Shown: in pieces, positions 51,316 through 56,423 of the stretch
Layout of the letters: each line of letters opens with the position of its first letter
How positions within the stretch are numbered: the stretch's first letter is position 1
From: Blastocatellia bacterium
GTDB lineage: Bacteria > Acidobacteriota > Blastocatellia > UBA7656 > JADIYM01
NCBI GenBank assembly: GCA_021463145.1
Contig: JAJTWZ010000005.1
Coordinates: forward strand, 54,152-118,151
Reading direction: 5' to 3'
Length of the DNA: 64,000 bases
Program-made: the position numbers and the translations under genes
The notes under the pieces: model-generated
The model's input: only the letters and a program-made list of their open reading frames with translations
Told to the model about the DNA's origin: nothing
The model's database searches: none

Positions 51316-51425
51316 AATGCCGCGATGCCCTGTATTTCTCTTTTGTCGTCACGGGCGGTGCTCGGGCACGCCCAATGTGACCCGACGATATCCGGTCGAT
51401 CCCGATGTTTCTGGAGGCGAATGAA

Positions 51426-51857
51426 ATGAGATCCCGACTGACTGTCATTCCCGCACTCGTACTTTCGATGGCGTTTTGTGGTCTGTTTCCCGCGGCCGTA
51501 TCAGGCGGCGTTCCGTTCGAGGGTGAGCAGTTTCCGACGCCTGCGCTCAAGGCGTTCCACGATGCGATGCAGCCGCTGGTTCACGAGGCGGCGCCCGCGA
51601 AAGACGCTGCGCGGATCCGCGCGGCCGTGCCCGACCTCGACGCGAAGCGAAGCGCCATCCTGCGCGGTGGCACAGGCTCGGCCGCCGGAAAGGCGAAGCT
51701 CGATGTCGTTAAGTTGCTGGAGGCGTTCAACAGTTCGGTGACGAAGCTCGTCCAGGCGTCGAAGGGAAGCGGAAACGACGATGCCGTGCTCGCGGCGCTC
51801 GATTCGGTACATACGGCGTTCGAGGCGCTCGTCGCCGGGTATCCGGCGAAGGGCTAA
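51426..51857 (+). CDS. Secreted small helical-bundle protein; its 3' end is the IS target site
   Basis: Signal peptide; AFHDAMQPLVH..VHTAFEAL; last codon and TAA are supplied by the IS end. Confidence 0.7.
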   Translation: MRSRLTVIPALVLSMAFCGLFPAAVSGGVPFEGEQFPTPALKAFHDAMQPLVHEAAPAKDAARIRAAVPDLDAKRSAILRGGTGSAAGKAKLDVVKLLEAFNSSVTKLVQASKGSGNDDAVLAALDSVHTAFEALVAGYPAKG

Positions 51858-51881
51858 CCGACATTTGAAGTAGAAAAAGGG

Positions 51882-53237
51882 CTATAGCTCACCCTTCGCC
51901 AGCAGATTCGTCAGTGTAGAAATCGACGCTCCGAAGTCGAGCCAAAGCTGTTCCGGCTCCCGGTGAAGGCTGCCTGCGGGCAATCGGTACAGCACCCCGG
52001 GCTCCGTCATTCCATAGGTCGTGTTCACGCCCTGCGGAGCCCGGCGGGGGAGCTTCGTTCGAACCCGTACGTCCTTTCGAAAGAGCATCTTCGCCCGGAT
52101 CGCCCCGAACGAATAACCCCGGCCGGCCCGGTTCGCCTGGCGGACCAGGCCATTCAGGGCTTCTGTCGCCGCATTGGTTTCACGCACGTCGAAATAGTTG
52201 AAGATGCACGTCCCCCAGTTTCTGAATGCCGTCACGACTGGCTTGAAGGCCGCAGCCACTTCGCCCGAAGCCGGGAGTTGCGCCTTCCATGCGGCAAACG
52301 TCGCCTCTGCCTCCTCGCGGGTTGAACAGTCGTAGATGGCGTAGAACGCTTCCTTCAGTCGGTAGGTCTCGCCCAGGTTCGGGAAATTCACGATCCAGGT
52401 GTCGAGCTTGATCCGCTCGTCCATCTTCAACGCCTTCTCGCGTTTGGCCAGGATGCGCTTGTCGTAGCGGAGCGTTCGCCGCACGGCATCGCTCAGTTCC
52501 GTGCGAAGGGCGCGGCGGACCTTTTCCAAGGCGTCGTTGGCCATGCGGACGACGTGGAACTTGTCGATCACGATGATTGCGCGGCGGAAATACTTCCTGG
52601 CCAGGTCACGATAGGCAGGCCACATGTCGATGGCCACCACCTCGACCAGGTGCGGGTTGGGCATCTGGGAGATGTATGGCTCCAGGGTCGCCTTCGTTCG
52701 GTCGCGGATCATGTCGATGATCGTCCGCTTCTCCAGGTTCGTCAGCACCGCCCGCGACTTGCGGATCAGGTAGATTTCGTCCATCCCGAGCCAGCGCGGT
52801 GTCTCGACGCGGTAATCCTTCCCGAGTTGCTCGCTGTGTTTCTTGAACAGCCGCCGAACTGTGATCTCATTCAGGCCCGTCTCCTGGGCGACGCTCGCGA
52901 AGGTGCGCTTGATGGATTCCTTCATCACGTACTCGACCAGGCGAGTGGTGGCGTGGTGCGAGTCGTCCATTTCGAGCAAGTTCTGCATGAACGTGGCCTT
53001 GCAGCTTCGACACCGGTACCGCCTGCGGTTGACGATGATGATCGTCGCTTTCCCGAGCGTGGGTAGGTCGCGGTAACTTCGCACCTTTATCCCGTGCCCG
53101 TAGAAAGGCGGGTCTGCCCTGCAGACAGGACAGAATTCGGTGATGTTGTAGGTCGGCTCGGCCGTCACCCACCGGGCGTTTTCGTCCTCTTTAACCCTCA
53201 CAACGGTCCACTCAGGCAGGTGCAGAATGTTGGCCAT
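51882..53237 (-). CDS. ISL3-family DDE transposase
   Basis: CPVC..RRYRCRSC zinc finger, LGMDE, IDMWPAY, IDKFHVV, TNAATEALN..GRGYSF. Confidence 0.95.
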   Translation of the reverse strand: MANILHLPEWTVVRVKEDENARWVTAEPTYNITEFCPVCRADPPFYGHGIKVRSYRDLPTLGKATIIIVNRRRYRCRSCKATFMQNLLEMDDSHHATTRLVEYVMKESIKRTFASVAQETGLNEITVRRLFKKHSEQLGKDYRVETPRWLGMDEIYLIRKSRAVLTNLEKRTIIDMIRDRTKATLEPYISQMPNPHLVEVVAIDMWPAYRDLARKYFRRAIIVIDKFHVVRMANDALEKVRRALRTELSDAVRRTLRYDKRILAKREKALKMDERIKLDTWIVNFPNLGETYRLKEAFYAIYDCSTREEAEATFAAWKAQLPASGEVAAAFKPVVTAFRNWGTCIFNYFDVRETNAATEALNGLVRQANRAGRGYSFGAIRAKMLFRKDVRVRTKLPRRAPQGVNTTYGMTEPGVLYRLPAGSLHREPEQLWLDFGASISTLTNLLAKGEL

Positions 53238-53340
53238 GGGGCCGCATTCTACCCGCAATGTCGGAGTTCACCGAAAGGAGGGAGAGCCGCCATCAGGAGC
53301 CGGTCGGACCCGAGCCAAGGAGCGCCCCTGGCTCCGACGC

Positions 53341-53967
53341 TCAAGTCCCGAGACCGGTACCCCCTCGCTCGTCGGGCGTCGACTGGAGTTGTCGAATCAG
53401 CGCCCTCAACGGCGTCCGATCGATGCCCTCACGCGCTTGCCAGAGAACGTCTTCGAATCGCTTCAGGCGATCAAGGAGGGCTGCTTGCTCAGGTAACTGC
53501 GCGACCAACGCCGCACGCTCCACCAGGGTCGACATCGAGGCGAGACCTGACGCGAGCACGTCGATGAGGAGCGGCCAATCCTTGTCCCGACCAGCCATCA
53601 GCTTCGCCACGCACGTATCGTGAATCTCGGTGCAGAAGGCGACCGTGTGACCGTGCTCGTCCTTAAGCGGTTGAAGACGATCCTCCTATCCCGGCGGAAG
53701 CACCACGCTCGATCGCCCAAGAGCATCGGCGTGATAGCCCATGCGCTCCTGAAACGCGCTCAACACCCCGAGTTCCTGGCGCACCCGCATGAGGGCATCG
53801 ATTCCGGCGCCACCCAACAAGAAATCGCACTCGGTCGAACGCTCCACCGCGCCAGGGACCGACCGCGCCGCCGCGTACAGGGCTTGGGACCCTACGATGA
53901 TCGGAGTCTCAACTCCGGCAACGGCGCTAACGCGCCGCGTCAAGGAGATGACGTGCTCTTTCTTCAC
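53341..53967 (-). pseudogene. DUF6036-like nucleotidyltransferase (putative toxin) interrupted by an in-frame TAG at 53688-53686
   Basis: IIVGSQA..STECD (GS..DxD-like); the frame reads LPPG*EDRLQPLKDEHGHTVAFCTEIHDTCVAKLMAGRDKD, joining ORFs 53686-53967 and 53341-53610 in one frame. Confidence 0.8.
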
Positions 53968-54310
53968 ATTCCCTCATGAGTACGGCGCGCTCCTCGTCCG
54001 AAAGCAGGCCAGCGAAGGGACTCGACTGCCGCAACTGCTGTCCGCGATCCGAGTCCTGCGTGATGGCCGCCACGATCTCGTCGGGATCGCCACCCTCGAG
54101 GATTCGCTCCCACTCGCACAGCGCGCGCCGCTCGGTCTGGTCGAACGCCTCATTGCGCATCCACCGCGCGAGCGTTCGCCGCGCGTGATCGAGCGTCACG
54201 TGCGAATCACGGCAGATCCTGGCACTGACCTGGCGATGGTACGCCAGGGCGAAATCGTCCAGGAACTCGTGCGACTCGAGGTAGTGGGTGAGGTCCTGAA
54301 ACTGGCGCAT
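53927..54310 (-). CDS. Small helical protein, putative antitoxin/partner of the nucleotidyltransferase
   Basis: LAYHRQV..ARRTLARW..EWERIL..LRQSSPFAGLL..ER; overlaps the start of the downstream NTase; SD-like AAGG. Confidence 0.7.
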   Translation of the reverse strand: MRQFQDLTHYLESHEFLDDFALAYHRQVSARICRDSHVTLDHARRTLARWMRNEAFDQTERRALCEWERILEGGDPDEIVAAITQDSDRGQQLRQSSPFAGLLSDEERAVLMRECEERARHLLDAAR

Positions 54311-54340
54311 GCGGTGCCCTTTCCGAAGGTTACGCCCCTC

Positions 54341-54368
54341 ATTGTACACGAGCAATGTTCTATGCCAA
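54341..54368 (-). promoter_or_regulatory. Putative sigma70 promoter for the IS passenger operon
   Basis: TTGGCA-16 nt-TACAAT, 30 bp upstream of ATG 54310. Confidence 0.55.
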
Positions 54369-54535
54369 CACGAAATGTCGGTTTCATAGAATACCGTACG
54401 CGAGCAAGAATCTACATTTAATGTCGGAAAGCCCGGCGAAGTAGCGCCCTCGTGCGCGGCCCGAGGCGCCGCTCTGGTCGTTGCCGATTCGAGCGCGTTG
54501 CGCTTCCTCGACAGGGTTCCCCTCCCCACTCCCTC

Positions 54536-54592
54536 AAAGCGGCGCTTCACGCCGCACTCCAAGGTGCTTCACGCCGCACTCCAAGGCGCTTC
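54536..54592. repeat. REP-like hairpin with 22-bp tandem duplication
   Basis: AAAGCGGCG-CTTCA-CGCCGCACTCCAA hairpin; unit GGYGCTTCACGCCGCACTCCAA at 54541 and 54563, partial at 54585. Confidence 0.7.
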
Positions 54593-54659
54593 GCACCAGA
54601 GTCCTTGGGGGAGGGCGCGCCGGATTCGTCGTGGAACCGTCTGATATACTCGGCCGCCC

Positions 54660-56423
54660 ATGTCGCCGATGACGAACGCCCAGCGCATCCGCGGGTATTA
54701 CTCCAGATACAGGCGAGCCTTGGTGCTCGGCGGCCTCTCGGTCATCCTCTCCTACCTCGTCAAGCTCTCGGCCCCTTCGATCGTCAAGCTTGCAATCGAC
54801 GATCTTCGCGCCACGACCGAATCTGGCGCGACGATGCAGCGGCCGCTGGTCTGGTACGGGGCCGTCTTCCTCTCGATCATCCTCGTGCAGGGGCTCTTCC
54901 TGTATGCGCAACGATGGATCCTGATCGGAATGTCGCGCAACGTGGAGTACGACCTCCGCAACGACTTCTTCGCGCACCTCGAAAGGCTTTCGCAGTCGTT
55001 CTACGTAACGAATCGGACCGGCGACCTCATGGCTCGCGCCACGAACGACCTCGGCGCCGTCAGGATGATGATCGGCCCGGCTCTGATGTACGCACTAGGC
55101 ACGGCGACCGTCGTCGTCCTGGCGTTTCCTCTCATGCTGAACATCAGCGTGAGCCTCACGCTCCTGTCGCTCTGCACGCTGCCGTTCGTCTCGATTGCAA
55201 CGAAGTTCTTCGCCAAGCGCATCCACGACCGCTTCGAAAAGGTTCAGGAGGAGTTCTCCGCCATTACCGCCCGCGCGCAGGAGAATCTCGCCGGCGTGCG
55301 CGTCGTTCGCGCCTACGCGCGCGAAGACACCGAATCCGAAGCCTTCTCCGAGTTCAACCGCACGTTCGTGGATCGAAACCGCGCCATCGCAACGCTCCAG
55401 TCACTATTCCATCCCTGTCTGACGACGTTCACCGGTCTGGGATTCGCCGCAGTCGTCTGGTATGGCGGACACAAGGTCATCGCCGGCGACATCTCGCTCG
55501 GCCAGTTCGTCGAGTTCAACTTCTATCTGACGTACCTCATCTGGCCGACCATCGCTCTCGGGTGGGTCATCAATCTCTACCAGCGCGGCATGGCGTCCAT
55601 GGGACGCCTGAACAGCATCCTCAATACCGAACCGGAAATTGCCGACGCCCCTGGCGCAAGCGACACGGCCGTGCACGGAGCCATCGAGTTCCGCGAACTG
55701 ACGTTTACCTACCCCGGCGCGTCGAAGCCCGTGCTGTCGGACATTTCGCTGCGAATCGAAGCGGGAACCACGCTTGCCGTCGTCGGCCGGACCGGATCGG
55801 GCAAGTCGACGCTCGTCAATCTCATTCCGCGCCTCATCGACGCGGCGCCCGGAATGGTGCTCATTGACGGCCGGCCGATACAAGGCGTGTCGCTCGCGTC
55901 GCTCAGGGGCAGCATCGGCTACGTCCAGCAGGAGACCTTCCTCTTCTCCGACACCGTTGCCGGGAACATCGCTTTCGGCGTGCCCGGCGCTACCGGCGAT
56001 GCCGTCGAACTCGCCGCCGAACAGGCAGGACTCGCCCGCGACGTCGTGACGTTCCCGAAGGGTTTCGAGACGATGGTCGGCGAACGCGGCATTACGCTCT
56101 CGGGCGGACAGAAGCAGCGCACGGCCATCGCCCGCGCCCTGCTGCGCCAGCCGCGAATCCTCATCCTCGACGACGCGCTCTCGGCGGTCGACACCTACAC
56201 CGAGGAACGCATTCTCAAGCGACTGCGCGGCCTGATGCAGGACCGCACCAGCATCCTGGTCTCGCATCGCGTGTCGACCGTGAAGGAAGCCGACCTGATC
56301 GTCGTTCTCGAGGACGGACGCATCGCCGAGCGTGGCGCCCACGACGAGCTCCTCGCGCTCGGCGGCCTCTACGCCGACCTGCACGCCCGGCAGTTGCTCG
56401 AGGAAGAGCTCGCCGCGAGCTGA
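54660..56423 (+). CDS. ABC exporter half-transporter (MdlA/YheI-like)
   Basis: TM domain; [27 protein letters not shown] (degenerate Walker B). Confidence 0.93.

Follow-up and report, generated by a model that had tools for sequence, protein, structure and literature searches.

Nucleotidyltransferase (NTase) toxins of the MenT type add nucleotides to tRNA 3' ends. Insertion sequences (IS) of the ISL3 family are bounded by terminal inverted repeats of about 15–39 bp that start with GG, and they duplicate 8 bp of their target (ISfinder definition). DUF1814 proteins are described as possessing four motifs (PMC7450476), the MenAT1 antitoxin as binding its toxin directly (PMC10435456, PMC11375011) and MenA1 as inducing the auto-phosphorylation of MenT1 (PMC11375011). 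Also described are toxin-antitoxin pairs lying beside the transposition genes of Tn3-family transposons, where they are proposed to stabilise the element or the replicon (PMC7157771), and ISPpu12a, an ISL3 IS with extra open reading frames (ORFs) unrelated to transposition inside its repeats (PMC4133298). Here we analyse a 64-kb stretch of contig JAJTWZ010000005.1 (the window, to which all coordinates refer unless another contig is named), taken from the 5.28-Mb genome assembly of a sludge acidobacterium (G000). It contains an ISL3-family element of 2,582 bp (51852-54433, minus strand) which, besides its transposase gene, carries two passenger genes, one for a DUF6036 NTase and one for a small partner protein. 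With somewhat more confidence than doubt, we propose that these two genes make up a toxin-antitoxin-type module on an ISL3 transporter element, in which the NTase would be the toxin and the partner its cognate inhibitor, and which would have been defused here.

The vehicle is an ordinary one, cargo-carrying ISL3 elements being already known; the cargo is the new part. The transposase (51882-53237, minus strand, 451 aa) is intact, with zinc ribbon, helix-turn-helix (HTH) and DDE domains (PF14690, 5.8e-13; PF13542, 2.1e-8; PF01610, 1.5e-55), and it scores 279.3 bits against NF033550 (cut-off 180), covering model positions 2-369 of 370. The terminal inverted repeats are 23 bp long and identical at 18 of the 23 positions, and both start with GGCT: GGCTAACCGACATTTGAAGTAGA is found at the transposase 3' end (51852-51874, plus strand) and GGCTTTCCGACATTAAATGTAGA, written as the reverse complement, at the cargo end (54411-54433, minus strand). 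A repeat-pair search scored them as 24 nt at 79%, one flanking base being counted in. Outside the repeats lie the left and right copies of the 8-bp duplication CGGCGAAG (51844-51851 and 54434-54441), which have 0 mismatches between them and enclose the full 2,582 bp. An earlier note, made from the letters of the stretch before any database search, had reported imperfect GGCT repeats, a perfect 8-bp duplication, an intact transposase and two overlapping, co-oriented passengers, and had proposed the ISL3 family; each of these features was recovered in place, and the profile matches bear out the family. Judged on its sequence, namely the transposase type, the GG start of the repeats and the 8-bp duplication, the element is thus a member of the ISL3 family. 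Since the closest database transposases are 77% identical (P0119, also 451 aa, and P0123, partial) and the next ones only 55% and 52%, it would count as a new IS under ISfinder's usual identity criteria. A sample of 400 other genomes of the phylum yielded no close transposase relative at E<=1e-60. Genome G023, of the same order, has an ISL3 transposase that is 52% identical and is without these repeats and this cargo; it was set aside, being silent on an ancestral cargo-less form. None of the NTase or partner homologues found came from a contig of the size of that of P0119 (3,663 nt), and there is a weak hint that the P0119 element is without cargo. Like the passenger-carrying ISL3 elements ISPpu12/ISPpu12a, ISPst2 and ISEc53, the element has a zinc-ribbon/HTH/DDE transposase, GG-tipped repeats, an 8-bp duplication and extra ORFs; unlike them, it has a DUF6036 pair as cargo and a third copy of the repeat core between the cargo and the transposase gene. 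Among the listed publications on ISL3, passenger genes and toxin-antitoxin systems, whose titles and abstract openings formed the material (ISfinder being outside this scope), no toxin-antitoxin cargo in ISL3 was apparent.

The core common to the two repeats, CCGACATT-N4-GTAGA, has three exact matches in the window, against 0.04 expected with one mismatch allowed, and the exact matches in the 5.28-Mb genome are these same three places, all within the element; they are therefore not due to chance. Four one-mismatch sites elsewhere in the genome have no transposase near them and were put down to chance. The third, internal copy, CCGACATTGCGGGTAGA (53248-53264, minus strand), has the orientation of the right repeat and divides the cargo from the transposase gene. 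It stands 10 nt upstream of the transposase ATG, where the end of a cargo-less ISL3 element would be, and this could suggest that the passengers are not cargo at all, a 1.4-kb IS (51852 to ~53272) and the cassette having arrived separately and the repeat at 54411-54433 being a solo or chance copy. We regard such a history as very improbable, since the perfect 8-bp duplication encloses 2,582 bp and not the 1.4-kb part, the internal copy is without the GGCT tip that both true ends have, and the core motif is absent from the rest of the genome. The same conclusion is reached from two genomes of the host's genus that belong to different species (G001 and G002). Their homology to the window ends exactly at 51851 and picks up again in the right flank, and at this otherwise collinear site the target is present once and unoccupied, both the IS and the passengers being absent. 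The gene at the empty site ends ...PPK-TAG in G001 (...ccgccaaag-tag...) and ...WPK-TAG in G002 (...ggccgaag-tag...). A duplication that flanks the whole 2,582 bp and an empty site in two species of the genus support the view that passengers and IS moved as one unit, as the earlier note had suggested; the element thus presents itself as a structurally complete 'transporter' IS, with non-transposition genes that lie within the repeats and are moved along. According to that note, its proposal would have been contradicted by relatives in which the passengers occupy this locus but the IS is missing. There were none, neither in G001 and G002 nor in 40 relatives of the same family and order, in which a protein search with the NTase gave 0 positives. 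It had also advised looking for other copies and for empty sites; the latter exist, but the element is single-copy in the G000 genome. We read the internal core copy in one of two ways: as what is left of one end of an ancestral IS of 1.4 kb, or as a site within the element, bordering the cargo slot, that the transposase binds.

Passenger B (53341-53967, minus strand) is the DUF6036 NTase gene, which has 208 codons and is a pseudogene in the window owing to an in-frame TAG at 53686-53688. When the stop was read through as X, its product scored 29.2 bits against PF19502 (cut-off 23.6) and 28.9 bits in a whole-genome family search, in keeping with the earlier label of 'DUF6036-like'; 98 of its 99 homologues carry PF19502. 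In an alignment of 28 sequences, residues S27, Q28, E46, D48, W94, D117, K122, R127, K129 and D130 are invariant and G26 nearly so, and codon 94 of the window gene is TAG where all 28 have Trp. Because a natural allele that is 97% identical (P0001) is intact and has Trp at this codon, the TAG is best understood as a TGG to TAG nonsense mutation. A frameshift as the cause of the damage was ruled out, all 208 codons lying in one frame with a single TAG. This triplet is a normal stop in the host, as the original stop of the gene hit by the IS is also TAG. The W94* truncation takes away the C-terminal catalytic residues D117, K122, R127, K129 and D130, and the toxin-like NTase gene is dead in the G000 genome.

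The AlphaFold model of the NTase (predicted local distance difference test, pLDDT, 92.6) aligned best with MenT1 (8an4_A, Z 9.5, root-mean-square deviation 4.4, 165 aa) and MenT4 (6y56_A, Z 8.8, 187 aa), and MenT3/TglT (Z 8.0) and JHP933 were also among the matches listed. Foldseek E-values were weak (0.04-0.6). The Pol-beta-type motifs I and II described for these toxins (PMC7450476) are represented by a conserved GS (G26-S27) and a conserved acidic pair E46-x-D48 in the 28 sequences. D117, K122, R127, K129 and D130 resemble, at the level of sequence, the pattern K...R..(K/R)D of motif IV, which like motif III is C-terminal and specific to DUF1814. With the MenAT/AbiE systems (DUF1814: MenT1-4, AbiEii), the pair thus has in common an NTase fold, a GS motif, an acidic ExD pair and an NTase gene that lies downstream of a small partner gene and overlaps it. 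It differs from them in that its NTase belongs to PF19502 and has no DUF1814/AbiEii Pfam match. At 208 aa the NTase is about as long as the MenT1 chain (195 residues), and the chains of MenT3 and MenT4 are longer (~290). By its position, and by that only, S27 is a candidate phospho-acceptor.

Passenger A (53927-54310, minus strand) encodes the partner, an intact, all-helical protein of 127 aa and the predicted antitoxin. Its stop codon overlaps the start of the NTase gene by 41 nt, and partner, NTase and transposase genes are co-oriented. The protein matched no Pfam, NCBIfam or PADLOC family, and the best E-value in a Pfam scan of 35 members of its alignment was 0.0034, which is noise. A profile built from these 35 members retrieved 4,090 cluster representatives at E<=0.001, of which 2,060 pass E<=1e-10; D18, W50, W67, R94, P98 and F99 are invariant in the alignment. 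Structure searches with the partner gave a Foldseek best E of 1.6 and, in the ESM Atlas, hypothetical-protein clusters only, and a PDB profile search returned nothing (best E 0.59). The Foldseek comparison that had been recommended for both passengers thus gave weak matches for the NTase and nothing clear for the partner, and the latter resembles no MenT partner listed in the fold search. In P0117, an HTH_31 domain (residues 28-85) precedes the partner domain (91-196, hhalign 99%), P0114 and P0116 carry HTH_17, and a ribbon-helix-helix (RHH), winged-HTH (wHTH) or HTH domain was found in 3 of 22 long representatives of the family. On a conjugative Hydrogenophaga plasmid, a protein with an Xre-HTH and the partner domain (hhalign 98.8%) is encoded by a gene that overlaps a DUF6036 gene by 4 nt. 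Longer members look like type II Xre-HTH antitoxins: their partner domain comes after an Xre-type HTH at the N-terminus, and their genes overlap the NTase gene, whereas the IS copy is the bare C-terminal domain, for which there is no Pfam model.

A sigma-70-like promoter, TTGGCA-16-TACAAT, was identified upstream of passenger A (54341-54368, minus strand) as a consensus match only (10 of 12 positions); no other such site occurs in 2.7 kb, where 0.7 would be expected. About 46 nt in from the cargo-side end, at 54373-54381, the repeat core is present a fourth time in degenerate form (CCGACATT, then TCGTGTTGG). This copy overlaps the −35 box of the putative promoter and may be bound subterminally by the transposase, which would couple cargo expression to it. 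At the other end of the element, a terminator-like stem-loop directly follows the transposase stop (51876-51897, minus strand; again a consensus match only, 4 being found against 1.9 expected).

We then looked at the association of the two genes elsewhere. The NTase has relatives at 80 genome loci in at least five phyla (Acidobacteriota, Verrucomicrobiota, Planctomycetota, Pseudomonadota and Actinomycetota), and at 78 of them a relative of the partner is encoded directly upstream. The genes overlap at most of the 78 loci, commonly by 14-23 nt, and are separated by a small gap at a few. No relative of the transposase was found within 4 kb of any of the 80 loci. The context was studied through 94 of 173 flanking ORFs, from 27 loci, and the neighbours proved heterogeneous, with genes that we labelled as mobile or defence-type at 8 of the 27 (DDE transposase, HNH, ResIII, deaminase, AAA_13, DUF5615, DUF7687 with a D12 methylase, and nSTAND1). 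Plasmid records with DUF6036 genes number 48, of which 25 are conjugative; the phage collection gave no DUF6036 match at E<=1e-5. Conserved adjacent and co-directional pairing in variable contexts is a trait of type II toxin-antitoxin modules, and as far as gene order can tell this pair has it.

The cassettes seem to have decayed at 2 of the 80 loci only (L061 and L056). At L061 (JANPJA010000110.1, positions 553-1457, from another acidobacterial metagenome-assembled genome), the partner gene has a stop at the invariant Trp50 and the NTase gene is frameshifted near codon 90-97. Stops in the tblastn matches of the partner at L019-L021, L024, L029 and L053 were discounted as natural C-terminal stops that had been read through. 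The host genome itself has a second, diverged cassette (L016, on contig C77; ~1500-2092 on the minus strand and 1001-1432 on the plus strand). Its partner is intact (153-aa ORF, E 1.1e-28), and the NTase remnant, homologous over the first ~55 residues only, adjoins an opposite-strand gene for a PIN-domain (VapC-like) protein. G000 also has two partner fragments with stops (contigs C73 and C124) and an N-terminal NTase fragment (C116). A plasmid of Acidiphilium multivorum (L114, NZ_CP041717.1, 2540-4572) carries a DUF6036 gene about 0.7 kb upstream of an annotated AbiEii/AbiGii-family NTase toxin gene, that is to say two NTase-type modules side by side.

The stretch is present in 20 of 24 listed public runs, from 15 studies, 10 of the 20 being possible sources of this DNA; all the runs that have an organism label are sludge, bioreactor or biofilm metagenomes. 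Contigs of four of the 24 runs, each from a different study (X15, X16, X19 and X20), were compared with the window. The left junction is bridged by contigs in all four and the right one in three, the pieces from X16 not spanning it. No empty-site joint was seen in these contigs, which drop rare variants, so that an empty site may still exist. Divergence from the window reaches about 2% (in X20, 30 differences in 1,300 nt and 38 in 1,701 nt). As diverged strains in four runs carry the same junctions, the insertion is not demonstrably recent; it is species-specific yet common to diverged strains, and the 'fairly recent insertion' that the earlier note had read from the intact duplication loses weight accordingly.

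These contigs also revealed a second NTase allele, with an 8-nt deletion at 53639 and TGG at codon 94 (P0015; contigs of X19 and X20), whereas X15 has the window version, with 0 differences over 53541-53998. Three natural alleles of the NTase gene thus exist, intact, W94* and the 8-nt deletion, the two lesions being independent. In the contigs of the four runs, the partner and transposase genes were free of reported indels; apart from the 8-nt deletion, the sole indel is the loss of 2 nt from the spacer at 53280. A scan of metagenome contigs with the intact allele, in a collection that may lack records near the host genome, gave only 2 distant loci, 32% identical over ~50 residues. X15, X16 and X19 share four substitutions in or just inside the left repeat (51854, 51871, 51877 and 51879), the first two of which change GGC to GGA at the tip and GTAGA to GCAGA; a 974-nt contig piece of X15 differs from the window by these four alone. 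The ends of the IS may be decaying or immobilised in some lineages.

Because the partner is kept while the enzyme is lost, both in the window and on contig C77, the enzyme appears to be the toxic half of the pair. The opposite polarity is known from MNT-HEPN systems (MntA-HepT), where minimal nucleotidyltransferases are the antitoxins, and the NTase could likewise modify or neutralise a toxic helical partner; an MNT antitoxin (8xeo) and MntA-HepT (6m6u) are among the weak Foldseek rows. This we consider quite unlikely. With the NTase dead in the window and truncated on C77 and the partner intact in both places, it would require the loss of an antitoxin with the toxin kept, which should not be tolerated. 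Moreover, the small gene precedes the larger enzyme gene and is the one with DNA-binding fusions, which points to it as the antitoxin, and the 35 aligned partner sequences have neither an invariant His for the Rx4-6H motif of HEPN proteins nor, in the conserved loop, a Ser, Thr or Tyr that is invariant and could act as acceptor.

The predicted NTase-partner complex is consistent with the NTase as toxin and the partner as its inhibitor. It reached a score of 0.83 in 3 of 3 runs, against 0.00 for the best control, the score being the model's own confidence; of 157 solved complexes 116 attained the 0.83 mark, as did 2 of 215 mismatched pairs. At least 96% of the contacts recur between runs, and the pLDDT of the partner is at least 84. 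On the NTase side, the predicted interface comprises residues 42-48 (with E46 and D48), 67-87 and R127-K129, and on the partner side residues 88-112, among them the invariant R94, P98 and F99. A conserved loop of the partner thus sits at the NTase active site in the model, in a substrate-like manner that would also suit a partner modified by the NTase, as the reverse polarity has it.

A tight complex is also what would be expected of an obligate heterodimeric enzyme, and this leads to a further explanation, that of a two-subunit NTase with a regulatory or specificity subunit, acting for example on a small molecule such as an antibiotic; the adaptive enzyme would have been carried by the element, become dispensable later and decayed. 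In the model, however, the partner does not extend the active site but lies over the catalytic acidic residues E46 and D48. The Xre-HTH, RHH and wHTH domains of some partner relatives are typically seen in antitoxins that regulate their own expression, not in enzyme subunits; the genomic context is variable and the genes occur on the 48 plasmid records; and the partner is retained where the NTase is lost, on C77 as in the window. We thus hold the two-subunit enzyme to be unlikely, although less so than the reverse polarity.

Several observations weigh against a toxin-antitoxin module on a mobile element, and some of them also fit a two-subunit enzyme. The Z-scores of the NTase fold are moderate, and ANT(2'') (8.3), the antitoxin AbiEi (8.2) and LnuA (7.1) score almost as high as the MenT chains; ANT(2'') and LnuA fit a two-subunit enzyme. 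So does the finding that most flanking genes at the 27 loci are housekeeping, many of the cassette neighbours being ordinary metabolic or transport genes, and so does the outcome of the PADLOC-DB 2.0 search, in which 0 of the 3 element proteins matched at E<=0.1. The NTase had no match to the AbiEii/DUF1814 Pfam model at E<=0.1; its profile, searched against the PDB, gave a best E of 0.17 and no MenT chain at E<=10. The partner has no clear structural relative (VIA-align best Z 6.0, YdaT, in the noise range for helical proteins), and its IS copy is without a DNA-binding domain. As regards mobility, three of the four runs (X15, X16 and X19) have changes in the left repeat at 51854 and 51871, where the two repeats otherwise agree, and current mobility is unproven since no second insertion site was found in the genome or in the four metagenome runs. 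Two or three NTase lesions are statistically too few, and relaxed selection after a single loss also gives decay. Finally, we infer toxicity, neutralisation and binding alike. The toxin-antitoxin nature claimed by the earlier note has therefore gained support in silico only, from the pairing at 78 of 80 loci, the HTH-fused partners, the MenT-like fold and the predicted complex.

Taken together, these data make a MenT-like NTase toxin with a new type of antitoxin the most likely identity of the cargo, in a pair that is uncharacterised yet very widespread. The larger proposal is that DUF6036 proteins and their partners form a large undescribed family of NTase toxin-antitoxin or abortive-infection systems, with a new cleft-plugging antitoxin fold, one module of which was captured by an ISL3 element as an addiction device, and that in sludge populations its toxin has repeatedly been knocked out and its antitoxin retained, which would document the defusing of an addiction module in nature; to this we give about an even chance. 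DUF6036 was not named in any paper found by the full-text literature search, TADB, ISfinder and supplementary files lying outside its scope.

The mechanism that we envisage for the proposed module is as follows. By analogy with its family, the transposase would recognise the two terminal repeats through the core CCGACATT-N4-GTAGA and move the 2,582-bp unit, which would have inserted into the last codons of a small gene and generated the 8-bp duplication. Between the cargo-side repeat and the transposase gene, the cargo would form a two-gene operon with its own promoter-like site, and translation of the NTase is probably coupled to that of the partner via the gene overlap. The NTase, whose predicted fold is closest to the tRNA-modifying toxins MenT and AbiEii, would be a growth-arresting enzyme, and the partner would inhibit it by direct binding over the catalytic cleft. 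The latter would be a form, without DNA-binding domain, of an antitoxin family whose longer members have an Xre-HTH, a winged HTH or an RHH. On a mobile element, such a module would serve addiction or stabilisation, or possibly abortive infection. In G000 it would be defused by the TAG at codon 94, the partner and the transposase staying intact. The arrangement recalls the Tn3 family in that a toxin-antitoxin-type pair lies beside the transposition genes of a transposable element, but Tn3-family transposons have a resolvase and res sites whereas this element is a single-transposase IS, and the toxin-antitoxin families reported for Tn3-family transposons in the consulted part of the source, one HEPN-MNT pair included, are without DUF6036 (PMC7157771). 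If the proposal is true, a large branch with a new antitoxin type is added to the MenT/AbiEii NTase toxins, an insertion sequence, and not a Tn3-type transposon or a plasmid, carries an addiction module, and three alleles at one fixed locus constitute a natural experiment on how hosts defuse such modules.

The gene into which the element inserted (51405-51857, plus strand) encodes a protein of 150 aa that belongs to no Pfam family and whose hydrophobic N-terminus looks, by eye, like a signal peptide. Its stop codon is straddled by the IS, so that the frame now ends ...PAKG-TAA instead of ...PAK-TAG, the Gly codon and the TAA coming from the inverted repeat. As the duplication and the in-frame TAA of the repeat restore a ...PAKG* end, the insertion was nearly neutral for this gene. 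The G+C content of the element (0.59-0.66) is similar to that of its flanks and gave no compositional sign of foreign origin.

To the right of the IS, the intergenic positions 54442-54675 hold a short repeat family, which appears here as an imperfect palindrome together with tandem 22-mers, GGCGCTTCACGCCGCACTCCAA. Short matches to it, 75-98% identical, are spread over many contigs of the host genome and of genomes from its genus, and in four metagenome runs its summed contig depth is 50-220x, against ~5x for the flanks. It looks like a REP (repetitive extragenic palindromic)- or MITE (miniature inverted-repeat transposable element)-like element.

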